A stretch of 10,311 bases of DNA from Thiotrichaceae bacterium (GTDB lineage: Bacteria; Pseudomonadota; Gammaproteobacteria; Thiotrichales; Thiotrichaceae). Below the pieces are notes generated by a model that made no database searches, was not told the origin of the DNA, and was given only the letters and a program-made list of their open reading frames with translations. The stretch is from positions 1 through 10,311 of the forward strand of contig WGBH01000503.1 in NCBI GenBank assembly GCA_015494435.1, written 5' to 3'. This document shows, piece after piece, positions 1 to 10,311 of the stretch. Position 1 is the stretch's first letter. Each line of letters begins with the position of its first letter. A program made the translations under genes and the position numbers.

Positions 1-34
1 ATATTTTACAATGAAATATCAACGAGAGAGAATC

Positions 35-2563
35 ATGAGATCAAAAAATAAGTATTTTAGCTATCTTTTATCTGTATTAATGGTTAGTTGCTTGTTTGTA
101 TTATCTACAAGCATAAAAAATGTATATGCTACTCCTATTACCATTGATGGCAATTTAAATGACTGGAGTGATTTAGATCGTCTTGATTTACCCCCAGGTG
201 CGGTTAGTGAGGGCTATCAGGTTTATGGGCGCTTTGAAAATGATCAATTTTTATTAGCTTTTCGTGCGGATGCAGGTGATATTAGCACAGGATCAACCAT
301 TTGGTTAAATACAGATCAAGATACAACAACAGGCTATCAAATTTTTGGTGCAGCAAGTGGGATGGAGTTTAATGTCAATATTCATACCGATAATAAGCCT
401 TATCTATATTCTGGAGCAGCGGCGCAAACCTTTGTTATGGGACCATTAACCCATGCGCGAGGCACAGATAGTAACGGTAAAAAAGTATTAGAAATAGCCA
501 TACCCAATAGTCAAATTAATGTCGCAGGTAGTGGTGTTGATTTATTCTTTGATATCAATAATACGACCTTTATTCCTAGTTTTTATACTGCAAATAATCA
601 ATACCATTTGAATAAACAAAGCCTTCCTCTTGCAAATAGCACTGACACAAGGGTTGCGATTATTTATTCTCAAAGCACTGCAAATAATTTTTTCGATAAA
701 AAAGCATATAGTCAACTATTTATGTCAGCACAAATGCAAAGTGTTATGGCGGGAGTCCCCTTTGACTTATTAAATGAAACTGATTTAACCGATTTAAGCA
801 AAATAATTAAATACGATGCCTTGATATTCCCTTATTTTGCCAACGTCCCTGAAAGTATTCTGCCACAAATTACAGAAAACCTTTTTCATGCAATTTATCG
901 TTATAAAATTGGTATTATTACCGCTGGGAATTTTCTAACCAATACAGAAACAGGTTCTAGTGTATCAGGCGATGCTTATGCCACTATGAAAAGCCTTCTC
1001 GGCATTGCCCGTGTTAATGGTGCAGGACCTGTTAATATTACCGTCAATACCAGTACAACTCCACATCCTGTTCTGATTGATTATAATGAGAATGAAGAGA
1101 TATTTAGTTATACCAATGCTTTTATTGATTACTTTGCAGCAGCCTCTGCAACAGAACCCGTTACCACTCTGGCAACCCAAAGTATTTTAGGAGGGACAGT
1201 TGAAAACGCGATCCTCGCCAGTGAAAAAGGCGGCGCTCGTAGTGTACATTTTAGTACAGTACAACTCCTAGGCGATGGCAATATGCTCTACCCTGCTATT
1301 CAGTGGGCAGTTTATAACACCGACAGTACGGTTGGTTTAAAGCTAAGTCGCCAAAATAGCCTCTTTATTTCCCGTAATGATATGGATCAAAGCATGTTCC
1401 CTGATGAAATTGCGACCGTTGAAGTTCCTTTATTGACACTACTAGACACATGGAAATCCAAGTATAACTTTGTTGGTTCTTTCTACATCAATGTTGGTAA
1501 TAATCAAGCCGCAGGTGAATACACGGATTGGACCATTTCAGCACCGTTATACCAACAGTATATTGCTTTAGAGAATGAAATTGGCTCCCATTCTTATACT
1601 CACCCTCATGATACCAATCTTTTAACGCCCTCAGAAATTAGTTTTGAGTTCGCTGATTCCATTGCAGTGATTGAAGCAAATTTAGGACTGAGCAATATAG
1701 GCACGGCTGTCCCTGGCGCACCTGAAAACTTTAATACTGCCACTGAAATTATTCAACATACCAGCTATTTATCAGGAGGTTATTCAGGTGTTGGAGCAGG
1801 ATTCCCCAATGCGATTGGTTACTTAACCCCAGATTCAACAAAAGTTTATTTAAGTCCAAATATGACCTTTGACTTTACTAATATCGGTTTTTTAGGCTTA
1901 ACGGCAGCACAAACAAAAGCGAAATGGTTTAGTGAATTTGATCAATTAAGCTTTAAAGCAGAACAACCCATCATCCATTGGCCTTGGCATGACTATGGTC
2001 CAACCACAAGTCTTACAGAAGGCTATACCATTGATATGTTTGAAAGCTTGATCAGTAAAGCATTTAATGCAGGCAGCGAATTTGTCACAGCTAATGACTT
2101 TAGAAAACGTCTGGAAAGCTTTAAAGCTGCCACTTTAACCCTAACCCGTAATGGCGATGATATTACAGCAGTCGTTGTAGGCAATCATTTAGGACATTCA
2201 GCGCTTAAAGTGGATGATGATAAAGTAATTAAATCAGTGGATAATTGGTATGCTTATAATGATCAATACCTTTATCTTGATCAAGATGCAGGTAGCTATA
2301 CACTTCATTTAGGCAATACTCAGGATGCAGTCACTCATATTAGCTACCTACCCATGCGCACTAATCTCATCAGCATAACAGGTGATGGTCAGAATTTATC
2401 TTTTAGCTTTTCAGGTAAAGGAGCAGTTGAAGTTGAAATGGCATGTGCAAGCACACCCGTTGTCACAGGCGCTGACCAATATCAGATAACAGGTAATACC
2501 CTTAAATTAGAATTTGACAATATTGCAGTACACAATGCAACAATTCAATTAGGTTGTCCTTAA
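35..2563 (+). CDS. Secreted multidomain protein: N-terminal CBM9/DOMON-like carbohydrate-binding module, central alpha/beta domain, putative NodB/CE4-type polysaccharide deacetylase-like domain, C-terminal beta-rich domain. Alternative start at ATG 11 (ORF track).
   Basis: Uninterrupted 850-codon ORF. The ATG at 35 is preceded by GAGAGAG (24-30) as a Shine-Dalgarno-like element. The ATG at 11 has no room for an RBS in the window. N-terminus MRSKNKYF-SYLLSVLMVSCLFVLS-TSIKNVYA|TP is a classic n/h/c signal peptide with an AxA-type cleavage site. ITIDGNLNDWSD resembles the start of CBM9/DOMON-like modules. GSHSYTHPHD matches the H(S/T)xxH metal-binding motif of NodB-homology deacetylases. Function is inferred only from these motifs. 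Confidence 0.85.
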   Translation: MRSKNKYFSYLLSVLMVSCLFVLSTSIKNVYATPITIDGNLNDWSDLDRLDLPPGAVSEGYQVYGRFENDQFLLAFRADAGDISTGSTIWLNTDQDTTTGYQIFGAASGMEFNVNIHTDNKPYLYSGAAAQTFVMGPLTHARGTDSNGKKVLEIAIPNSQINVAGSGVDLFFDINNTTFIPSFYTANNQYHLNKQSLPLANSTDTRVAIIYSQSTANNFFDKKAYSQLFMSAQMQSVMAGVPFDLLNETDLTDLSKIIKYDALIFPYFANVPESILPQITENLFHAIYRYKIGIITAGNFLTNTETGSSVSGDAYATMKSLLGIARVNGAGPVNITVNTSTTPHPVLIDYNENEEIFSYTNAFIDYFAAASATEPVTTLATQSILGGTVENAILASEKGGARSVHFSTVQLLGDGNMLYPAIQWAVYNTDSTVGLKLSRQNSLFISRNDMDQSMFPDEIATVEVPLLTLLDTWKSKYNFVGSFYINVGNNQAAGEYTDWTISAPLYQQYIALENEIGSHSYTHPHDTNLLTPSEISFEFADSIAVIEANLGLSNIGTAVPGAPENFNTATEIIQHTSYLSGGYSGVGAGFPNAIGYLTPDSTKVYLSPNMTFDFTNIGFLGLTAAQTKAKWFSEFDQLSFKAEQPIIHWPWHDYGPTTSLTEGYTIDMFESLISKAFNAGSEFVTANDFRKRLESFKAATLTLTRNGDDITAVVVGNHLGHSALKVDDDKVIKSVDNWYAYNDQYLYLDQDAGSYTLHLGNTQDAVTHISYLPMRTNLISITGDGQNLSFSFSGKGAVEVEMACASTPVVTGADQYQITGNTLKLEFDNIAVHNATIQLGCP

Positions 2564-2587
2564 TATAATTAGTGAAATCACACGCCT

Positions 2588-2608
2588 GACGGAGCTTCTA
2601 GCCCCGTC
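2588..2608 (+). terminator. GC-rich hairpin 25 nt downstream of the ORF1 stop (gacggagct-tct-agccccgtc; 9-bp stem, one A.C mismatch). Possible terminator or RNA stability element. No U-tract immediately after it.
   Basis: Read directly from the sequence: left arm 2588-2596, loop 2597-2599, right arm 2600-2608. A T-run (cattttgc) occurs only about 6 nt further on, so it is weak as an intrinsic terminator. Confidence 0.25.
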
Positions 2609-2982
2609 GCAACATTTTGCTCGCACCCAAATTCCTATTTAGTTAAGTCGTATGTGTCAAGTCCTCATTCCACACGAAGTAAATGTAAAGCACTCACCGC
2701 AACAGGTTGATTTTAGTGAATGCGCTATTGCTTATCCACTCTATAAATCACAATTGGCGAAGATCTATAAAAATAGATAATATAATTGCTTTGATAAAAT
2801 GAATAATTGTGTATAGAGCCACAACCCGCACCAAGCCCAAAAGGATAACCATTAAATAAACAACAACTCGCAGCAAAAATTTGGAAATCTACCAACCAGA
2901 TGCGTTCCAAAAATTGCACATACAATCATTGAGCGAGCAATCAGTTCGACAGCCTAGGTAACAAACCCCGTCGGGCTAAAAT

Positions 2983-3153
2983 ATGAATGATTTTGGACGT
3001 TTTGATGCCTTAAAATCTTGCGTGGACAAGGCAAAAGCCAAAACCTATTTTGAACAACGCGATGGCAAGACAATTTCACCGTTTAAGGTGAATATTGAAG
3101 TGGATAAGTTGTTGCGTGGGTTTATTATAAATGATGGAGAGCTTGATTTATAA
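2983..3153 (+). CDS. Small hypothetical protein, 56 aa (MNDFGRFDALKSCVDKAKAKTYFEQRDGKTISPFKVNIEVDKLLRGFIINDGELDL). Below the ORF-track size cutoff.
   Basis: ATG at 2983 and TAA at 3151-3153, translated by hand. The sequence is charged and non-repetitive, unlike random AT-rich ORFs. The RBS is weak (cgggctaaaat before the ATG). It sits alone in a 1 kb gap. No family recognised. Confidence 0.3.
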   Translation: MNDFGRFDALKSCVDKAKAKTYFEQRDGKTISPFKVNIEVDKLLRGFIINDGELDL

Positions 3154-3468
3154 ACTTTATAAACCCTATCATTGTAGTAAAACTAACCAAAATATATTTC
3201 ATTTTACTTTGCCCCTCCCAATTATTCTGATCTCAATTATCCTGAATATATAACTTTTCCTCGTTTTAATGATCTCAATCGTTGCGTAGCTCGTATCGAG
3301 CTTTGTAGAATACGAGCAAATAATAAACCAACGGTGCTGTTTTCATAAAACTTCACAAAATGTGCAATAGTACCAGAATAGATTTTCTTATCAGGTTATG
3401 TTGGGTAAGTTTTAAGATGGCTAGTACCTGAAATAATTTCCTTAATTATCACGAAGAGGTTTTGTTTC

Positions 3469-3529
3469 TGATTCAATTATCTCAAGAGAAGCATCGTTAT
3501 TCTGTATAATGATTGAGATGATTGAATCA
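3469..3529 (+). promoter_or_regulatory. Imperfect 17-bp inverted repeat (tgattcaattatctcaa ... ttgagatgattgaatca, 1 mismatch) enclosing TG+TATAAT (3503-3510), about 100 nt upstream of the MBL-fold gene. Candidate promoter with overlapping operator, or an RNA hairpin.
   Basis: Arms at 3469-3485 and 3513-3529 read from the sequence, with a 27-nt spacer that contains ctgTATAATga. Its position relative to the start at 3626 fits a sigma70-type promoter for the downstream gene. Confidence 0.3.
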
Positions 3530-3625
3530 GGGGTGATAGGGCAAGTTTAAATTGGGAGGTTCTTTCATGTATGTTCCTTAGCTTAATCAATAAAAATTTC
3601 TAAGTCAGAAGGATGGAGTATAGAG

Positions 3626-4486
3626 ATGAAAGTTACATTATACGGTGTGCGAGGATCAATACCTACCTCCAGTGGGGAGACGATAAAATACGGCGGGCAT
3701 ACTGCCTGTATTTTTGTTGAGGTAGATAATAAATTACTAGTTTTTGATGCAGGTACGGGGATTCGCAAACTGGGTAATGATATTGCGAAGGATGATCGGG
3801 ATATTTATTTGTTTTTTAGTCATTATCACTGGGATCATATTCAGGGTTTTCCTTTTTTTAAGCCTGCTTATCAATGTGGACGGAATATTCATTTATTATC
3901 GGCTTATCTTCCTGAAAAAAATGCTAGAGCAGTTTTAGATCAAATGGTGAATCCTCATTTTCCTGTTCCTGGTGATAAAGTACAGGCAAAAGTACGGGTT
4001 ATGGCAATGGATGCTGAGGGGAATTTAGCGCTTGGTAAGATTAAAATTACTACCTGTGCATTGAATCATCCCGGTGGGGGAGCGGCTTATCGTCTTGAAA
4101 CGGAACAGGGGAGTTTTGCCTATGTAACTGATAATGAGCTTTATCCACCTAATGAACCCAATACCACATGGGAGCAGTGGGTTGATTTTTTGCAAGGGGT
4201 TGATTTGCTTATCCATGATGCAATGTATCTTGATGAAGAACAGAAAAGCACCCACGGCTGGGGGCATTCACTTATCTCTCAAGCCATTCGCTTAGCAAAA
4301 GATGCTAACGTCGCTAATCTTGTTTTATTCCATCATGACCCTGATCGAACGGATGAGCAGTTAGAGGGTATTTTAGAAGATTGTCAAACTTGGGTTGATA
4401 AGAATAATGCTTCTTATAAGCTAAGATTAGCAAAAGAAACCGATGTTTATCATATTTTAAATTCTACAGTAGAACTTAATTCTTAG
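3626..4486 (+). CDS. Metallo-beta-lactamase-fold hydrolase (lactamase_B_2-like; the same fold as PhnP/RNase Z/class II phosphodiesterase/AHL-lactonase enzymes). Substrate not determinable.
   Basis: 286-aa ORF. RBS aGGAtGGAG ends 7 nt before the ATG. Motifs HYHWDH (HxHxDH), NHPGGG, LIHDAMY and FHHDPD give the full set of MBL metal-ligand positions. MKVTLYGVRGSIPT is the N-terminus typical of this family. Confidence 0.85.
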   Translation: MKVTLYGVRGSIPTSSGETIKYGGHTACIFVEVDNKLLVFDAGTGIRKLGNDIAKDDRDIYLFFSHYHWDHIQGFPFFKPAYQCGRNIHLLSAYLPEKNARAVLDQMVNPHFPVPGDKVQAKVRVMAMDAEGNLALGKIKITTCALNHPGGGAAYRLETEQGSFAYVTDNELYPPNEPNTTWEQWVDFLQGVDLLIHDAMYLDEEQKSTHGWGHSLISQAIRLAKDANVANLVLFHHDPDRTDEQLEGILEDCQTWVDKNNASYKLRLAKETDVYHILNSTVELNS

Positions 4487-4536: not shown

Positions 4537-4553
4537 GGTGCATAGAATGCACC
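4537..4553. terminator. Short hairpin ggtgcat-aga-atgcacc between convergent genes, abutting the flotillin stop codon. Possible bidirectional terminator or mRNA 3-prime stabiliser.
   Basis: A perfect 7-bp inverted repeat with a 3-nt loop, read from the sequence. It lies 50 nt after the MBL stop and directly adjacent to the minus-strand TAG (4554-4556). No strong U-tract on either side. Confidence 0.3.
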
Positions 4554-6497
4554 CTAGTTCGCCAAATTCCCACCAAGAAACTTATTCAATAATTCTTCTA
4601 CCGCAGGGCTTTTCTGTTTAACAGCTTCAATAGATTTACCTAGGGATAAGGAGCGGGCAAAGGAGTTGAAATAATCACCTTCACCGCCGACAATATCAAT
4701 ATTGGCTTTTGCCAGTGCGGTGGATAAGACTTTAGCTTGGTAGGCGGCAATTTCTTTATCGGCATCAATTTGAATAATGGCTTGTTCAAAGGCTTTATCT
4801 AATTTCATACGGAATTCTTCGTGTTCACGCGAGTCTTCGCTCATTTGTTCCATTGCTTTGAATTTTTCCACTAATCCATCGGCTTCTGCCTTGAATTTTT
4901 CGCGGGTGACAATGGCTTGTGATAAGCCGATTTTTTCATTACCTTTGGCTTCGGCATCTAATTTTTCTTGTAGGATATTAGCTTCCATTAGACCTTCTTT
5001 TTCTTTGGCAATGGTTTGAGCTTCCATGCCTGTCGCCTCGGCGGTCATGCGTTCTTGTAACACTTTGGCTTCTGCAATCCCTTCTATTTGTTTTGCAACG
5101 GCTTTTGCTTCGATGACTTTTGCCTCTGCCAGTCCAGAGGCGGCTTTTTCTGCGCGTGTACCTTCAGCAAGTTTTATTTTTGCATCGGCTTCTTTAGAGG
5201 AGGCGTCTAGTTCAGCTTGTGCAATGGTATTAATTTCTTTGGCTTTATGGACGGCTTTGATTTCATCTGCTTGTGCTTGTTTGACCTGTTTAACTAATTC
5301 TTCTTCTGCTTTTGCTTCAGCTTCTAAAATGGTGGCTTGCTTTTGACGTTCTGCTTCACTGATAAGGCGGACATCATTAATTTTTTCTTCTTGTTCGGCA
5401 ACGGTTCGATCAACAGAAACACGTTCACGAATAACATTAGCAATTTCTTTCTTTTCTATCTCCAAGGCTTTTTCTTTTTCAATTTCTTGTATCGCTACTT
5501 CACGCTCTCTAGAGACGGTTTCTAACTCTCGGGCGCGAATGACTTTTTCTTCTTCAATGCTGATTGCGCGTAAACGGTTATTTTGTGCTACTTCGACTTC
5601 ACGTTGTTTATTTTCTTCCAATATTGCTATTTGTTCTTCAGTAATAATCCGTGCTTTTTCTGCACGCAATCGTTCTTCTTCTTGGATTTTATTGATTTCT
5701 GCTTCTTCACGGGCTTGAATTGTTTTAACTTCACGTTCTTGACGTGCTTCTGCATCGGCTTCTTGACGTTCTAAAGCTAGCATAGCCTCCCGCGTTTCGA
5801 CATTCTTTTTGGTAATAGAAAGTTGTTCATTACGTTCTAAAACATTGGTTTGCACATTTTGGGTGGCGGTTAATTCAGTAATTTTTCGAATTCCTTCAGC
5901 ATCAAGGATATTATCGGTATCTAAGGCACTTTTAGGGGTTTGTTCCAAATAATCTATTGCCACATCTTCTAATATATAACCATTTAGGTCATTACCAATC
6001 ACAGCAATAATGCTGTCTCTAAAGCCAATACGGTTTTCAAATAGACTAATAAAGTCCATTTGCTTGCCGACGGTTTTTAAGGCCTCTGAGAATTTTGCAT
6101 TGAATAATTCATGCACTGCATCTTTGTCAGAGGCACGTTCTACACCAATTGATTTTGCAACTTTTAATACGTCTTCACTGGTTTCATTGACACGTAAATA
6201 AAAGGCAACGGTAATATCAGCGCGTATATTATCACGGCAGATTAAGCCCTCTTTATTGCGACGGTCTAGTTCTAAGGTGATTAGTGAGATTTTCATTAAT
6301 TCTTTTTTATTGATCACAGGCCAGACAATGCCACCTGTAAATTTTACATTTGGCACAGAAGACATATCATTAATAATTAAAGCCCAACCTTGAGGAACTT
6401 TAACGTAAAAGCGGCTAAATGATAGGATCAGTCCTGTGACAATCAGTGCGATAACTGCAAGGCTAATTAAAATGATTATAATGAGTGAGCTTCCCAT
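4554..6497 (-). CDS. yqiK: Flotillin-family SPFH/band-7 protein (YqiK/FloT-like), 647 aa: N-terminal transmembrane segment, SPFH domain, very long Glu/Ala/Lys-rich coiled coil, conserved C-terminal tail.
   Basis: N-terminal hydrophobic helix (LIIIILISLAVIALIVTGLIL), then FYVKVPQGWALI...GLICRDNIRADITVAFYLRVN...DVLKVAKSIG...FSEALKTVGKQMDF...IGNDLNGYILEDVAIDYLEQTP, which matches the conserved flotillin SPFH core. About 300 aa of EA/EK heptad-like coiled coil follow. RBS AAGGA sits 9 nt before the ATG (6495-6497). Confidence 0.9.
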   Translation of the reverse strand: MGSSLIIIILISLAVIALIVTGLILSFSRFYVKVPQGWALIINDMSSVPNVKFTGGIVWPVINKKELMKISLITLELDRRNKEGLICRDNIRADITVAFYLRVNETSEDVLKVAKSIGVERASDKDAVHELFNAKFSEALKTVGKQMDFISLFENRIGFRDSIIAVIGNDLNGYILEDVAIDYLEQTPKSALDTDNILDAEGIRKITELTATQNVQTNVLERNEQLSITKKNVETREAMLALERQEADAEARQEREVKTIQAREEAEINKIQEEERLRAEKARIITEEQIAILEENKQREVEVAQNNRLRAISIEEEKVIRARELETVSREREVAIQEIEKEKALEIEKKEIANVIRERVSVDRTVAEQEEKINDVRLISEAERQKQATILEAEAKAEEELVKQVKQAQADEIKAVHKAKEINTIAQAELDASSKEADAKIKLAEGTRAEKAASGLAEAKVIEAKAVAKQIEGIAEAKVLQERMTAEATGMEAQTIAKEKEGLMEANILQEKLDAEAKGNEKIGLSQAIVTREKFKAEADGLVEKFKAMEQMSEDSREHEEFRMKLDKAFEQAIIQIDADKEIAAYQAKVLSTALAKANIDIVGGEGDYFNSFARSLSLGKSIEAVKQKSPAVEELLNKFLGGNLAN

Positions 6498-6571
6498 TGT
6501 TTTTTTCCTTATTTATTAGTTATAAAGTTTAATCTTTTTTAAATTTCTTGTTGAAGTGAAAGCTTCGGCTT

Positions 6572-6600
6572 TTTTTAGTTTGTGAGTCGCACAGGATCAA
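6572..6600 (-). promoter_or_regulatory. Candidate sigma70-like promoter for the flotillin gene inside the 113-nt yqiJ-yqiK spacer (minus strand TTGATC-N17-TAAAAA).
   Basis: On the minus strand TTGATC (plus 6595-6600) and TAAAAA (plus 6572-6577) are separated by exactly 17 nt. Both hexamers are 4/6 to consensus. This would allow flotillin expression independent of the upstream genes. Pattern match only. Confidence 0.2.
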
Positions 6601-6610
6601 TTTTGGCACC

Positions 6611-7243
6611 CTAAATATTATAAGTATTACTTTCACGAAGATATTCTTTGAGTATTACTTTATCACCACGTTTATAGTGATTAGGTTCTTTTGTACGAAT
6701 TTGTAAAATTAAGCCTGCGCCACCATCATTGAGTTCGACAGATCCATAGCTTAGATTCACTTTTTCTGAGCGTATTGTAGCGGTTCTTCCCACAAAATCT
6801 GTGGCGGATGCACCTTTTGCCTCTTTTTTTAATTTTTTCATTAAAGGTTTAAAGGGAGTCAGTAAGCTTATAACAATCGGTAGGGCAAGTGCAGGGGAGA
6901 GCAGTAGTAACCAAAAACCAAGTGCTACCTTTGCCATTTTGTTATCAATATTTTTCATCATGTTATTGATGAAAAATTCAACCATATAAAAGCATAGAAT
7001 CCATGAGATAAAAACAATAAGGGAGATGGATAAGGTGAGTGGAATACCATCGAGTCGGAATTTAGTTAACCACCCTGTTAAACTACTCGCATTATCACCT
7101 GTATCCATTTCTATTTCAGCGTCAAAAGAGTCAACTCCACCTATGCCAAATATGGATATTAACCAGTAAATGACAACCAGTACTAACAGTCCTGTGTAGA
7201 AAAGTGTTGGAAAGGTGAAGGCGTTACTTAGAAAGTCGATCAT
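6611..7243 (-). CDS. yqiJ: YqiJ/NfeD-like inner-membrane protein with C-terminal OB-fold, the usual partner gene upstream of a flotillin.
   Basis: 210 aa, similar to E. coli YqiJ (209 aa). Several predicted transmembrane helices (TLFYTGLLVLVVIYWLISIFGIG, LTLSISLIVFISWILCFYMV, ALGFWLLLLSPALALPIVISLL). C-terminal FVGRTATIRSEKV...GSVELNDGGAGLILQIRTKE...KRGDKVILKEY fits the NfeD OB-fold pattern. Sits immediately upstream of the flotillin gene in the same orientation, as in yqiJK. Confidence 0.8.
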   Translation of the reverse strand: MIDFLSNAFTFPTLFYTGLLVLVVIYWLISIFGIGGVDSFDAEIEMDTGDNASSLTGWLTKFRLDGIPLTLSISLIVFISWILCFYMVEFFINNMMKNIDNKMAKVALGFWLLLLSPALALPIVISLLTPFKPLMKKLKKEAKGASATDFVGRTATIRSEKVNLSYGSVELNDGGAGLILQIRTKEPNHYKRGDKVILKEYLRESNTYNI

Positions 7244-7255
7244 GTTTTTATTTCT

Positions 7256-8029
7256 TTAAGCATAATCGTATAACCATCTGGAAATACGATTAAGGGTTTT
7301 CTGGAAGTCTTTATGTTTGACAGGTTTAAGTAAATAAGTGGTAGCCCCTGCGAGGATTCCTTCTACCTCATCAAGCGGCTCTGTTTTACCACTTAACATA
7401 ATGACAGGGGTTCTTTTATAATTTTTGTTTTTGCGTAATTGTCTACATACTTCATAACCATAGATGTCGGGCATAATAATATCTAAAAAGATAAGATCGT
7501 ATTGTGTTGTGTTAATTTTTTCTAATGCATCTTTACCACAAACGGCATAAGATGCACTGATAGGCGTATCTCGTAGTTCAAGTTCTAATTGTTTTCTGAT
7601 AGCAGCACTGTCATCTACAACAAGTGCATGAAAATCACTTTTTGTCGTCTTGGTTTTTTGATTGCTTTTTGGTACTGGAGGCTTGCTAGTTGTTGTTTTA
7701 TTTTCAGTTGATTTTCCACATAATTGCGCCCCTTTTTCCATTGCTCGCATCACGCGGGTGATTAATAAGGGACGTTTGATATCATAAATACCAGTAAAGC
7801 CGTCATCTTGGTTACTCACTGTAATGATAATTTGTGATTGTTGTTGTTCTTGTGCAGATTTTATAGCCGTTGGTTCATTATTAACAATAAAGAGATCTGC
7901 TGTTTTAGCAGAACATTGATGGAACGCCTTATTTTTTTTTGCAAAAAACTCAATGACTCGCTCAAAGACGGCTAGATCTTTAACGGATAATCCAAAAAAA
8001 CAGAGTCCTATACTTTTCATTGTATTCAT
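7256..8029 (-). CDS. Response regulator with two receiver-like domains: a degenerate N-terminal pseudo-receiver (lacks the acidic DD pair) and a canonical C-terminal CheY-like receiver. No output domain.
   Basis: C-terminal half: ALVVDDSAAIR...YDLIFLDIIMPDIYGYEV...TPVIMLSGK...YLLKPV carries the complete REC signature (DD, D, S/T, K). N-terminal half: IGLCFFGLS...ADLFIVNNE...IIITVSN...IKRPLL is receiver-like but has FFG in place of the acidic pocket. A low-complexity T/K/P linker joins them. Its start ATG overlaps the stop of the upstream kinase gene (TAATG at 8027-8031). Confidence 0.85.
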   Translation of the reverse strand: MNTMKSIGLCFFGLSVKDLAVFERVIEFFAKKNKAFHQCSAKTADLFIVNNEPTAIKSAQEQQQSQIIITVSNQDDGFTGIYDIKRPLLITRVMRAMEKGAQLCGKSTENKTTTSKPPVPKSNQKTKTTKSDFHALVVDDSAAIRKQLELELRDTPISASYAVCGKDALEKINTTQYDLIFLDIIMPDIYGYEVCRQLRKNKNYKRTPVIMLSGKTEPLDEVEGILAGATTYLLKPVKHKDFQKTLNRISRWLYDYA

Positions 8030-10311
8030 TATAGTTCAACCTTATCTAATGACTTATAAGCTATATACTTATCGACTGTTGATTGTAATGTACTCTTATC
8101 AACAGGTTTGGTTAAATATTCATCTACGCCCGCTTGAGCGGCTAGTTTCCTATGTTTTTCAGTGCTTCGGGAAGTAATCATAATAATTGGTAACTTCCTT
8201 GTTCCCGACCAAGTACGTAGGGATTCCACCATTTCTAAACCATTCATTTTGGGCATTTCCAAGTCGGTAACAATGAGTTTGAAAGGTGATTGTTCTATTT
8301 GTTGCAATGCATCAGCACCATCAACCGCAGTACAGACTTGATGACCTAATGCTTCTAGCATGAGTCGCAAAGCAGTACGATTACTCAAAGAGTCATCGAC
8401 CACGAGGATTTTATCTTGATTAATATTGATACTATATGAATCACCGATATTAGGTCGTTGCTTCAAGGTGCTATCATTTGCTGATCTTAATAATTCAGGT
8501 AGATTGAGAGCGGGGGCCACCACACCATTGGGTAGTAAACAAACACCGTTGACCCCTGTTACGTTTGTCATCCAAGGCTTTAGAGTTTTAATAGTAATAT
8601 TTAAAGGCTTTAATATTTGATCAACGTATAACGCATAATATTGGTTTTGATGCTCGACAATAAGGACTGATTGACTTTTATCGCTAATAAATTTGGAGCT
8701 AGGCCAAGATAAAAAAGGTGATAATGATAATAAAGGAATCGCTTGTTGATGATAGTCGATAAATAATCGCCCCTCTTTTTGCTCAACACTATGAGGGCTT
8801 AAATAATGAATTTGTTGAATGAAGGCATTAGGAATAGCAAATGTATAACCTAAAATATCCACCAACAAAATATTCGCAGTAGAGAGAGTCAGTGGAACCT
8901 GTATTTGTATTTCGCTACCCTTGTTTTTTTCGCTACGGATGGAAATATTGCCTGATAAATTTTTGATCGCTGAATTGACAACATCCATACCAACACCACG
9001 TCCTGAGGTTTCTGTTATTTCATCGCGTGTTGAAAAACCAGGGCGTAAAATTAAGCGTAATTTTTCATTTTGAGAGAGTTTCGTTTCTGCTGTAATTAAA
9101 CCTTTTTTTATCGCTGTTTGGTAAACTTTATCGGCATCAATGCCTGCGCCATCGTCTTTTAGTGTAAGGAGAACTTGGTCGTTTTGTTGGGAGAAATTTA
9201 ATTGAATTTTTCCTGATTTATTTTTGTTTTTTTGTTGACGAATGTCAGCAGGCTCTATGCCATGATCGACGGCATTGCGAAGTAAGTGCAGTAAAGGGTC
9301 AATCAAACCTTTAATGACATCAGTATCAAGTGCTATTTCATCTCCAATAATTTCTAATTCAGCTTGTTTGTTAGTTTGACGGCAGGTTTCACGCACAATA
9401 CGCTGTAGTCGTGGAGCAAGAATTTTTGCCGATTCCATACGCATTTGTAATACAGTGCTATTGAGTTGATTATTAATTTGTTTTTGTGAATGTGACTGTG
9501 CTTTTAATGCATTTAATTGTTGTGTAAGTGAGAGTGACATTTTATGGTCATCTTCAACTGTTTCAGAAAGTAGCGCTGTAATGCTGTGTAATTCGTTATA
9601 GCTATCCATTTCTAGAGAGTCCATAGCGATTATTTCAGCAGATTTTAAATGATCTGATTGTGTTTGTTTTGTCATGCTTGGACGGGAGAGAGTGGCAGTT
9701 TGTTGATTAACAGCCCATTCTAGTTCGTCTAACATATTCCGAACACGTTCATTACGTTCGTCAATAGCCTGCCTTTCACGTAAAAGTAATGTAATTTGAT
9801 CGGCCATTTGTGTGTTATGGGTCATTAATTCACTAGAAAAGCTTAATAGTTTGTCAATGACTGAAATAGGCACGCGCAACGTAGTTTCATTGAGATTAGC
9901 GCGAACTGGCGTAGTGACGGCAGGATTCGCTGTGTTATTGTCAACAGAGGGTGCTATCAGTATTTCTTCTAAAGGCTGAAAGTGAAGATTGAACGGATTA
10001 CTGTTATCTGTTGTAGTCTCTATTTGTTTTTCATCAATCACTGGCGTTATTTGACGCTGATCTTTTTCATACTTGTCTTGTTTTGACTTATCCTGTTTGG
10101 ACTCATTTTTTTCAGATTTATCTTTTTCAGGCTTCTCTGGTTCAACTACTTCTTTTTCTAAAGGCTCGTTTGATAAATATTGTTGCCAATGCGAGAGTTT
10201 TTCATACAAATTAGGATATTCTTTGGGTGGAGTACCTTCTGAAAGCAAAGAATCATAAAGGCTTTCTAATAAATCAGCAGATTCAGTGAGGAGTTCGGAG
10301 AGTCTTGGAGG
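8029..10311 (-). CDS. CheA-type chemosensory histidine kinase with fused C-terminal receiver (CheA-CheY hybrid, ChpA/WspE-like architecture). 5-prime-truncated by the window edge, so the true start and Hpt domain(s) lie beyond 10311.
   Basis: The reading frame stays open to the last base of the window. The ORF-track start at 10248 is a TTG inside the frame, not a real start. Visible domains: KE-rich linker; P3 dimerisation motif TLRVPISVIDKLLSFSSELMT (around 9880); HATPase N-box LLHLLRNAVDHGIE (around 9261-9300), G1 LKDDGAGID and G2 GRGVGMDVV (around 8985-9015); CheW-like P5 domain (around 8440-8890); REC domain ILVVDDS...LIVTDLEMP...IIMITSRS...LTKP (8032 to about 8410). Confidence 0.9.
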   Translation of the reverse strand, partial: PPRLSELLTESADLLESLYDSLLSEGTPPKEYPNLYEKLSHWQQYLSNEPLEKEVVEPEKPEKDKSEKNESKQDKSKQDKYEKDQRQITPVIDEKQIETTTDNSNPFNLHFQPLEEILIAPSVDNNTANPAVTTPVRANLNETTLRVPISVIDKLLSFSSELMTHNTQMADQITLLLRERQAIDERNERVRNMLDELEWAVNQQTATLSRPSMTKQTQSDHLKSAEIIAMDSLEMDSYNELHSITALLSETVEDDHKMSLSLTQQLNALKAQSHSQKQINNQLNSTVLQMRMESAKILAPRLQRIVRETCRQTNKQAELEIIGDEIALDTDVIKGLIDPLLHLLRNAVDHGIEPADIRQQKNKNKSGKIQLNFSQQNDQVLLTLKDDGAGIDADKVYQTAIKKGLITAETKLSQNEKLRLILRPGFSTRDEITETSGRGVGMDVVNSAIKNLSGNISIRSEKNKGSEIQIQVPLTLSTANILLVDILGYTFAIPNAFIQQIHYLSPHSVEQKEGRLFIDYHQQAIPLLSLSPFLSWPSSKFISDKSQSVLIVEHQNQYYALYVDQILKPLNITIKTLKPWMTNVTGVNGVCLLPNGVVAPALNLPELLRSANDSTLKQRPNIGDSYSININQDKILVVDDSLSNRTALRLMLEALGHQVCTAVDGADALQQIEQSPFKLIVTDLEMPKMNGLEMVESLRTWSGTRKLPIIMITSRSTEKHRKLAAQAGVDEYLTKPVDKSTLQSTVDKYIAYKSLDKVEL

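Follow-up and report, generated by a model that had tools for sequence, protein, structure and literature searches.

A YqiJ-like/flotillin gene pair directly follows the last gene of a ChpA-type chemosensory cluster in one small group of Cocleimonas-like Thiotrichaceae, which are uncultured relatives of marine sulfur bacteria. The arrangement is real but lineage-restricted, and it speaks only weakly for joint function of the two systems. Our best reading, which we hold with slightly better than even confidence, is that an abbreviated flotillin module was relocated once to the 3′ end of the chemosensory operon, and that the result is a lineage-specific operon extension, expressed by read-through and inherited vertically. 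No paper describing the arrangement was found, in line with an earlier reading of the same DNA, made from the sequence only, which had not recognized it as a described one.

Gene content of the window

We analyzed a stretch of 10,311 nt (hereafter the window) from a Thiotrichaceae bacterium (contig WGBH01000503.1). It contains four minus-strand genes, whose ORFs overlap by 1 nt at the first junction and are separated by 12 nt at the second and 113 nt at the third:

8029 to >10311, minus strand: ChpA/PilL-like CheA-receiver hybrid kinase (Pfam; the 3′ 761 codons, in frame to the window edge)
7256 to 8029, minus strand: response regulator of 257 aa (RR257), the last response regulator (RR) of the chemosensory cluster (Pfam)
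7244 to 7255, minus strand: RR257/YqiJ-like spacer, 12 nt, A-rich, from the RR257 stop codon TAA to the YqiJ-like ATG; junction of the two modules (sequence)
6611 to 7243, minus strand: YqiJ-like (short NfeD-type) multi-pass membrane protein, 210 aa (profile match to E. coli YqiJ; family alignment)
6498 to 6610, minus strand: YqiJ-like/flotillin spacer, 113 nt, with an AAGGA ribosome-binding site
4554 to 6497, minus strand: YqiK-like flotillin (BacD/PaFlo3 type), 647 aa (BLASTP and hhalign against E. coli YqiK)
4537 to 4553, minus strand: terminator-like hairpin directly past the flotillin stop codon (consensus scan only)
3626 to 4486, plus strand: MBL-fold gene, convergent to the flotillin gene

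The sequence-only reading had reported the same four genes with the same overlap and gaps; its ORF coordinates agree with ours, and Pfam, BLASTP, and hhalign searches show its gene identities to have been essentially right. The kinase/RR257 junction at 8029 reads TAATG, which gives the 1-nt overlap.

The part of the kinase that lies in the window carries HATPase_c, CheW, and Response_reg domains (Pfam). On the source contig (L001) the gene extends past the window, and the full-length protein of 1223 aa has two Hpt domains followed by HATPase_c, CheW, and Response_reg (Pfam). Hpt, HATPase_c, a CheW-like domain, and a C-terminal receiver are the marks of a CheA hybrid of the ChpA/PilL type; the NCBIfam CheA models match the protein partially, below their equivalog cut-offs. 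The kinase and RR257 close a six-gene chemosensory cluster in the order RR-CheW-PBP-MCP-ChpA-RR257, and the ChpA-RR257 linkage is widely conserved.

RR257 consists of a putative N-terminal receiver-like (pseudo-receiver) domain of ~105 aa, a variable linker, and one canonical REC domain (residues 136–246, Pfam) with the conserved residues D139/D140, D183, S213, and K235. At the sequence level the N-terminal domain does not resemble REC (hhalign probability 0.5%), and its acidic pocket is not conserved. Its AF2 model has a β-α-β flavodoxin-like fold (pLDDT about 80), and the best Foldseek matches are two-domain receiver-type proteins (3luf/3mf4, RcsC ABL+REC, and PleD). Of the earlier description of this protein as a tandem receiver, the C-terminal REC therefore stands, whereas the N-terminal domain is receiver-like in AF2 and Foldseek only, so that a pseudo-receiver + REC architecture is only structurally plausible.

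The YqiJ-like protein is a multi-pass membrane protein with a small C-terminal beta domain. It has no Pfam match above threshold (YqiJ_N E = 0.096), and the Pfam models YqiJ_N, YqiJ_OB, and NfeD match 0 of 17 family members. The profile of the family aligns with E. coli YqiJ over 142 columns (hhalign probability 89.9%, E = 1.7e-6), from residues 49–208 against 48–205, a span that takes in the C-terminal OB-like domain; this alignment points, with moderate confidence, to membership in the YqiJ/short NfeD family. The gene is the obligate upstream partner of flotillin, which it immediately precedes in 90 of 91 loci.

The 647-aa protein has an N-terminal membrane anchor (residues 4–27 form a hydrophobic helix), an SPFH region, a long Glu/Ala-rich coiled coil, and a C-terminal tail. 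It has no PDB sequence match and no Pfam match even at E ≤ 10 (Band_7 PF01145, Flot PF15975), while E. coli YqiK itself matches both models. Judged by alignment, it is clearly homologous to YqiK (BLASTP: 30% identity over 461 aa, residues 13–459, E = 2e-41; hhalign: 99.8%, 411 columns), and the lack of Pfam matches, which marks a divergent subfamily that these models miss, does not contradict direct homology. An AF2 model built from an 18-sequence alignment has a mean pLDDT of 56.6, with the SPFH region below 50. Every column that an alignment of 18 family sequences shows as invariant is kept in the window protein. The family bears the NCBI name “flotillin family protein”, and its escape from Pfam Band_7/Flot at 60–70% identity across Proteobacteria constitutes an annotation gap.

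Junctions and expected transcription

A consensus scan found no terminator-like site on the minus strand at the RR257/YqiJ-like junction, and none would fit into a spacer of 12 nt, so the operon-like packing that had been read from the sequence holds at this point. On the coding strand the 113-nt spacer has no stable structure, its predicted folding being no stronger than that of shuffles (z = +1.3), and the terminator-like hairpin at 6550–6569 lies on the opposite (plus) strand only. The transcription unit probably ends at the hairpin past the flotillin stop codon, a hairpin that faces the convergent MBL-fold gene. Given a 12-nt spacer without a terminator, the pair would most likely be transcribed by read-through from the chemosensory operon, its expression being tied to that operon; from this spacing, the pair and the operon are probably co-transcribed in the window lineage.

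The pair might instead be expressed separately, from a promoter of its own inside or after the RR257 gene, in which case the adjacency would be a frozen accident without regulatory consequence. Weak promoter-like matches do occur inside the RR257 gene of the window (7515–7488 and 7445–7418), and the spacer is 120–197 nt long in the relatives L175, L173, and L177, in two of which sigma-70-like matches closely precede the YqiJ-like gene (L177: CTGACC-16-TATAAT, 10/12; L173: GTTACA-17-TAGAAT). However, promoter-like sites in the region are at chance frequency (15 vs. 11.3 ± 4.0 in shuffles), and with 11–12 nt from stop codon to ATG in the window, L082, L098, and L090, and no terminator past RR257, read-through would be hard to avoid. 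We consider this explanation improbable.

Distribution and origin of the linkage

The eight-gene block RR-CheW-PBP-MCP-ChpA-RR257-YqiJ-like-flotillin occurs in at least seven diverged lineages (dS about 1.2–1.7; the window, L082–84, L090, L093, L173/174, L175/176, and L177). Its flanks differ among them, with Radical_SAM or ankyrin genes upstream and MBL, PDDEXK+MBL, MTHFR, rhodanese, IleRS, or flavin reductase genes downstream. Adjacency restricted to a single genome, which the sequence-only reading had named as the outcome that would speak against it, is thereby ruled out.

Neighbor-joining trees of RR, ChpA, and flotillin each place the linked loci in one clade, which indicates a single origin of the link; within the flotillin tree, this clade falls inside the group linked to a giant ATPase. 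Neither a CheA nor an RR257 homologue adjoined flotillin in any of 79 other species-representative loci, among the matches listed. The nearest flotillin relatives (83–84% identity) have no chemosensory link and carry the giant ATPase instead, and the nearest relatives with the same six-gene cluster (L094, L095, L178, and L180) lack the pair; there RR257 ends the cluster, and the genes past it are convergent or unrelated. As a rule, the flotillin family has PspA, DUF2170, and the giant AAA+ ATPase as its conserved partners, not signaling proteins: a giant DUF3686/AAA protein is encoded directly downstream of flotillin in 73 of 92 loci, and PspA and DUF2170 lie upstream of the pair in about 49. 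The literature searched yielded no paper on this normal giant partner of ~1800 aa (DUF3686). A coupling of CheA pathways to flotillin that is general, or “hard-wired” in the words of the sequence-only reading, is not supported: the link has one origin in a narrow clade and is absent from the other listed loci and from the closest relatives.

Proposed relocation of the flotillin module

The YqiJ-like/flotillin pair is a widespread, self-contained membrane-scaffold module that normally sits between the DUF2170-PspA pair and the ~1800-aa DUF3686 AAA+ ATPase, in an operon of the bac type that serves membrane maintenance. In the ancestor of the clade, the pair alone, without the PspA or AAA+ gene, would have moved to a position just downstream of RR257 and would have been vertically inherited from then on; in the sub-lineage of the window, the spacer is now down to 12 nt, without a terminator. 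The two proteins presumably still act as they do elsewhere and with unchanged biochemical function, as an SPFH/flotillin assembly that sits at the inner membrane together with the YqiJ-like protein. On this account the relocated pair mainly shows that the module is portable and able to function away from its PspA/AAA+ partners, although the relocation coincided with loss of the AAA+ linkage and could for that reason have changed the role of the pair.

One aspect of the data sits less easily with such a relocation, as retention of the block in at least seven lineages despite differing flanks, together with shrinkage of the spacer from about 200 to 12 nt, is what selection for co-expression would produce. 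By analogy with the FloT-KinC scaffold of Bacillus, the flotillin/YqiJ-like assembly might scaffold the chemosensory array (MCP-CheW-ChpA) at the membrane, or it might be a partner, output, or target of RR257, perhaps through the putative pseudo-receiver. The operon fusion would then secure stoichiometric co-expression, and compaction to 12 nt would reflect selection for it. We regard such functional integration, including the raft-localized signaling suggested from the sequence alone, as a tentative and rather unlikely reading. It agrees with the persistence of the block at dS > 1 while both flanks change, with the progressive compaction of the spacer across the clade (197, 170, 120, 51 in L093, then 12 nt), with the loss of the usual AAA+/PspA neighbors when the pair joined the cluster, and with strong purifying selection on both genes in the linked clade (flotillin dN/dS about 0.03–0.04). 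In P. aeruginosa, moreover, bac-operon mutants are affected in swarming and biofilm formation, which are surface behaviors (PMC10948618). Retention is, however, also expected of neutral neighbors: a rough Poisson estimate, made by hand from the rate of flank breaks, gives a chance of about 0.13 of no break at the junction. The linkage has a single origin, with no independent recurrence among the 79 other species loci in the matches listed; in L093 the YqiJ-like/flotillin pair accommodates an inserted DinB-family gene; and the longer spacers, which contain promoter-like sites, show no sequence conservation. Deletion of paFlo3 reduced biofilm by only about 20% (PMC13086221), and no paper linking flotillin with ChpA or PilJ was found in the literature searched.

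Although bacterial flotillins are widespread, deleting them has mostly mild effects, and it is poorly defined which clients they serve. The fusion offers a concrete, testable candidate for such a client: either the ChpA array or RR257. If the two systems are functionally integrated, this would be the first case in which the genes themselves tie a flotillin of bacteria to a chemosensory array. As one event in one uncultured clade, the fusion establishes no general principle.

Comparison with known systems

The chemosensory cluster resembles Pil-Chp (Tfp-class) systems in having a small CheY-like RR, CheW, an MCP, and a multi-Hpt CheA-CheW-REC hybrid kinase. It differs from them in an embedded Peripla_BP_6 gene and in the extra terminal RR with its putative pseudo-receiver N-terminal domain; the flanks examined showed neither CheR/CheB (PilK/ChpB) homologues nor type IV pilus genes, and no PilJ-specific domain was detected. 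The cluster is of the ChpA type, and its membership in the Pil-Chp class is no more than a candidate assignment.

The FloT/FloA-KinC system of Bacillus subtilis, in which a flotillin scaffold supports a histidine kinase (Lopez and Kolter 2010, as cited in PMC13086221), is a conceptual precedent, whereas the linkage in the window is one of gene adjacency. KinC is a membrane-bound classical sensor kinase that is not encoded beside floT; the window kinase is of the soluble CheA type.

In E. coli, yqiJ-yqiK is a homologous two-gene module with the same gene order (YqiJ has 209 aa, against 210 aa in the window), and its locus agrees with the earlier statement that it stands alone without signaling genes. 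The window proteins form a distinct subfamily: the E. coli proteins score above the Pfam thresholds for Band_7, Flot, YqiJ_N, and YqiJ_OB, and the window proteins do not reach them.

The closest counterpart is the operon CesT/Tir(YjfI, DUF2170)-PspA-YqiJ/YuaF-flotillin-AAA+ ATPase described by Ravi et al. (2024; PMC11237479), of which P. aeruginosa bacA-F is a studied example, with BacC a short NfeD protein (PA14_16160) and BacD being PaFlo3 (PA14_16180) (PMC10948618; PMC13086221). Unlike that operon, the window pair has no DUF2170, PspA, DUF3686 AAA+, rhomboid, or PLD genes near it, and, as far as their visible flanks extend, the linked relatives also lack DUF2170/CesT-Tir, PspA, and DUF3686 AAA+. 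Its position at the tail of a chemosensory operon is likewise a context that these three papers do not mention. The pair itself is the same combination of a YqiJ-like protein and a TM/SPFH/coiled-coil flotillin, alike in order and orientation, and the window flotillin is 60–65% identical to Pseudomonas, Lysobacter, and Comamonas proteins encoded in operons of this type. Ravi et al. explicitly noted “abbreviated” operons with just flotillin and YqiJ (PMC11237479), and, within the flanks seen, the window pair is such an abbreviated version of the bac-type module.

Layout of the locus

The window sequence is contained in a 12.4-kb MAG contig, JALUJL010000168.1 (GCA_027041395.1). The sequence-only reading had described a same-strand array of four genes, and we recovered four head-to-tail open reading frames (ORFs) at exactly the coordinates it had claimed:

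8029 to >10311, minus strand, ChpA-like kinase gene, which exceeds the window edge and encodes 1223 aa on the source contig
7256 to 8029, minus strand, RR257, 257-aa terminal response regulator of the chemosensory cluster
6611 to 7243, minus strand, YqiJ-like gene, 210 aa
4554 to 6497, minus strand, flotillin gene, 647 aa

The TAA stop codon of the ChpA-like gene shares its last A with the ATG of RR257 (TAATG), 12 A-rich bases (window 7244-7255) separate the TAA of RR257 from the next ATG, and the flotillin gene is preceded by 113 nt of spacer that include an AAGGA ribosome-binding site. The flotillin stop codon is followed by a terminator-like hairpin, beyond which lies a convergent MBL-fold gene, and upstream of the ChpA-like gene the source contig carries genes for an MCP and a periplasmic binding protein.

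We considered and rejected that the 113-nt spacer holds a terminator or attenuator: its sole T-run hairpin belongs to the opposite strand, and on the coding strand it folds no better than shuffled sequences do. This opposite-strand, terminator-like hairpin (window 6550-6569, plus strand) would act only on antisense transcription.

Identity of the four proteins

Two Hpt domains, HATPase_c, a CheW-like domain and, at the C terminus, a receiver mark the kinase as a CheA hybrid of ChpA/PilL style. RR257 had been read as a tandem receiver. In its one canonical receiver, the acidic pocket, phospho-acceptor Asp, Ser and Lys are conserved across 30 homologues, and its N-terminal ~105 residues are a separately conserved domain. 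Tested by hhalign, this N-domain has no sequence similarity to receivers (REC); its AF2 model has a receiver-like beta-alpha-beta fold (pLDDT about 80), and the best Foldseek matches are two-domain receiver-type proteins (3luf/3mf4, RcsC ABL+REC, PleD). On the structure model, a tandem receiver is plausible only in the form of a pseudo-receiver plus receiver.

Queried against Pfam, NCBIfam, PADLOC and PDB sequences, the 647-aa and 210-aa proteins gave nothing usable (for the former, Pfam, NCBIfam and PDB sequences were all without a match), so both were identified from their similarity to YqiK and YqiJ of E. coli, by direct as well as profile comparison. The 647-aa protein is 30% identical to YqiK along 461 residues (E = 2e-41), with hhalign at 99.8%, and, judged by this similarity, is its homologue; members of its family, labelled 'flotillin family protein' by NCBI, share 60-70% identity across Gamma- and Betaproteobacteria. 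The 210-aa membrane protein matches YqiJ at profile level only (89.9%, E = 1.7e-6), and the two are alike in length, architecture and position upstream of a flotillin gene. Neither the window flotillin (4554-6497) nor its family has a Pfam Band_7/Flot match, and no precomputed Pfam domains occur in the 120 best flotillin-family matches listed; the Pfam miss is an annotation blind spot. The AF2 model of the flotillin, built from an 18-sequence alignment, had a pLDDT of 56.6, too low for a fold search.

Distribution of the linked arrangement

Adjacency of the two gene pairs is not confined to this genome. The order ChpA-RR257-YqiJ-like-flotillin is present in several locus sets besides the window: L082-84 (flotillin 97% identical, RR 92%), L090 (flotillin 93%, RR 77%, ChpA 66%), L093 (flotillin 92%, RR 66%), and L173/174, L175/176 and L177 (RR 67-71%), with a partial block in L096 and L098. 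Contigs of equal length that carry flotillin cluster members (at least 90% identity) and more RR homologues suggest further linked contigs. Judging by accession numbers, the two Cocleimonas MAG proteins probably derive from separate MAGs. Where sequence suffices, the full block reads RR123-CheW-Peripla_BP_6-MCP-ChpA-RR257-YqiJ-like-flotillin, and dS is ~1.2-1.7 between the deeper linked lineages. The genes upstream of the block vary (Radical_SAM or ankyrin), as do those downstream (MBL, PDDEXK_2+MBL, MTHFR, rhodanese, IleRS, flavin reductase).

Several linked loci have peculiarities of their own. A 188-aa DinB-family gene (L093:5000-5566) lies between the YqiJ-like and flotillin genes and splits the otherwise tight pair. 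On the short metagenome contig L096 (609-1976), a 195-aa ORF with 88% identity to flotillin residues 1-192 comes directly after the RR257 homologue with no YqiJ-like gene between; a deletion variant, a gene truncation or a chimeric assembly may account for this. The ChpA gene on L174 (2822-6396), the second contig of the L173 lineage, is called as four ORFs of 56, 265, 380 and 447 aa, for which frameshifts, pseudogenisation or assembly errors may be the cause. A PD-(D/E)XK (PDDEXK_2, Rpn-like) transposase-family gene stands between the flotillin and MBL genes in the 97%-identical relative (L082:12047-12949) and is absent from the window.

Usual surroundings of the pair and origin of the link

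A scan of species-representative genomes gave at least 80 flotillin loci and, with metagenome relatives added, the ORFs were clustered in 92 loci. Among the loci listed, the YqiJ-like gene is directly upstream of the flotillin gene in 90 of 91, and a ~1760-1810-aa DUF3686/DUF7902/AAA protein (giant ATPase; entries L005:11913-17348 and L009:7665-9086) is encoded directly downstream in 73 of 92; loci without it are mostly incomplete contigs. About half of the loci listed have PspA/IM30 and DUF2170 genes on the upstream side; rhomboid or PLD genes stand further downstream, beyond the giant ATPase. These usual surroundings are the operon of Ravi et al. 2024 (PMC11237479). The name DUF3686 occurs in none of the papers covered by a full-text literature search. 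Because PADLOC gave no match, a part in anti-phage defence was rejected for both the pair and the giant ATPase.

A CheA or RR257 homologue adjoins the flotillin gene in none of 79 other species loci (among the matches listed), and on the strength of these loci and the unlinked sister lineages a widely conserved coupling was rejected. The flotillin loci L085-L089 and L091, at 83-84% identity, are unlinked and have the giant ATPase. The six-gene chemosensory cluster of the nearest relatives (L094, L095, L178, L180; RR 62-66% identical) ends at RR257, followed by convergent or unrelated genes, and distant RR257 homologues (RR identity down to ~37%) are still 3' of a ChpA gene, never before a flotillin gene. 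NJ trees of RR257, ChpA and flotillin each group the linked loci as a single clade, which in the flotillin tree nests inside the giant-ATPase-linked group. The simplest history is that the two-gene pair, minus its PspA/AAA+ neighbours, was relocated once to the chemosensory operon, at its 3' end, and was inherited vertically thereafter.

The RR257/YqiJ-like junction

RR257 and the YqiJ-like gene are 11-12 nt apart in the window, L082, L098 and L090; the distance is 51 nt in L093, 120 nt in L175, 170 nt in L173 and 197 nt in L177. The range of this spacer from 197 to 12 nt, with the shortest spacers in the window sub-clade, fits progressive operon compaction. The long spacers are unconserved except for an A-rich stretch before the ATG, and two of them contain sigma-70-like matches. 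Because the 12-nt window spacer is too short for a terminator or promoter, no minus-strand terminator-like site was found at this junction in the window, and promoter-like matches in the window region are at chance level, we infer that co-transcription by read-through is most likely in the window lineage. Fully independent expression of the pair, for which the sigma-70-like matches in the longer spacers might be cited, is improbable.

Neighbouring genes

Relatives with and without the link share a Peripla_BP_6 gene conserved between CheW and MCP (PBP identity 46-90%; L001:129-1373, L082:1419-2657, also L132, L143, L146, L150 and L173-L180), which suggests a dedicated ligand-binding partner of the MCP; no CheR or CheB genes are present in the chemosensory cluster of these relatives. 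In the unlinked L094, a PycTM-domain gene lies ~1 kb downstream of the RR257 homologue, past a convergent methyltransferase gene. The convergent MBL-fold hydrolase (window 3626-4486, plus strand) matches RNase Z models only partially and a cyclic-nucleotide-degrading phosphodiesterase model, NF041851, with E = 5.8e-10; its L082 orthologue has a weak Anti-Pycsar_Apyc1 match. Window 2564-3625 (~1.06 kb) has no ORF >66 aa and no Rfam family at the gathering threshold, and no Rfam families were found in the window as a whole. Window 11-2563 (plus strand) encodes an 850-aa protein that has a signal-like hydrophobic segment at its N terminus and whose sole match is a sub-threshold one to polysaccharide deacetylase (E = 0.0024).

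Interpretation

The evidence supports an arrangement that is real, clade-conserved and previously undescribed; our literature search found no paper combining flotillin/YqiK with ChpA/PilJ, in agreement with the earlier impression that the gene order is not a described one. On balance we lean toward a relocated module, co-expressed by read-through, with its function unchanged. A purely neutral view has against it that the block has been kept despite turnover on both flanks, and that the junction has been compacted. True functional integration of the pair with the chemosensory pathway is rather unlikely. A general CheA-flotillin coupling is not supported: the link arose once, without independent recurrence among the matches listed, the usual partners of the flotillin family are membrane-stress proteins, retention at such divergence is not unusual for neutral neighbours, and one linked lineage (L093) tolerates the DinB-family gene inside the pair. 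Adjacency is the sole ground of the coupling hypothesis, and the organisms are uncultured.

Among known systems, the P. aeruginosa version of the usual operon is the sigma-54-dependent bacA-F operon (PMC10948618), with PaFlo3/PA14_16180 as its flotillin and PA14_16160 as the short NfeD partner (PMC13086221), and abbreviated operons of a flotillin and a YqiJ/YuaF protein only are mentioned by Ravi et al. 2024 (PMC11237479). The kinds of component at the present locus are already known, and what is new is their genomic context.
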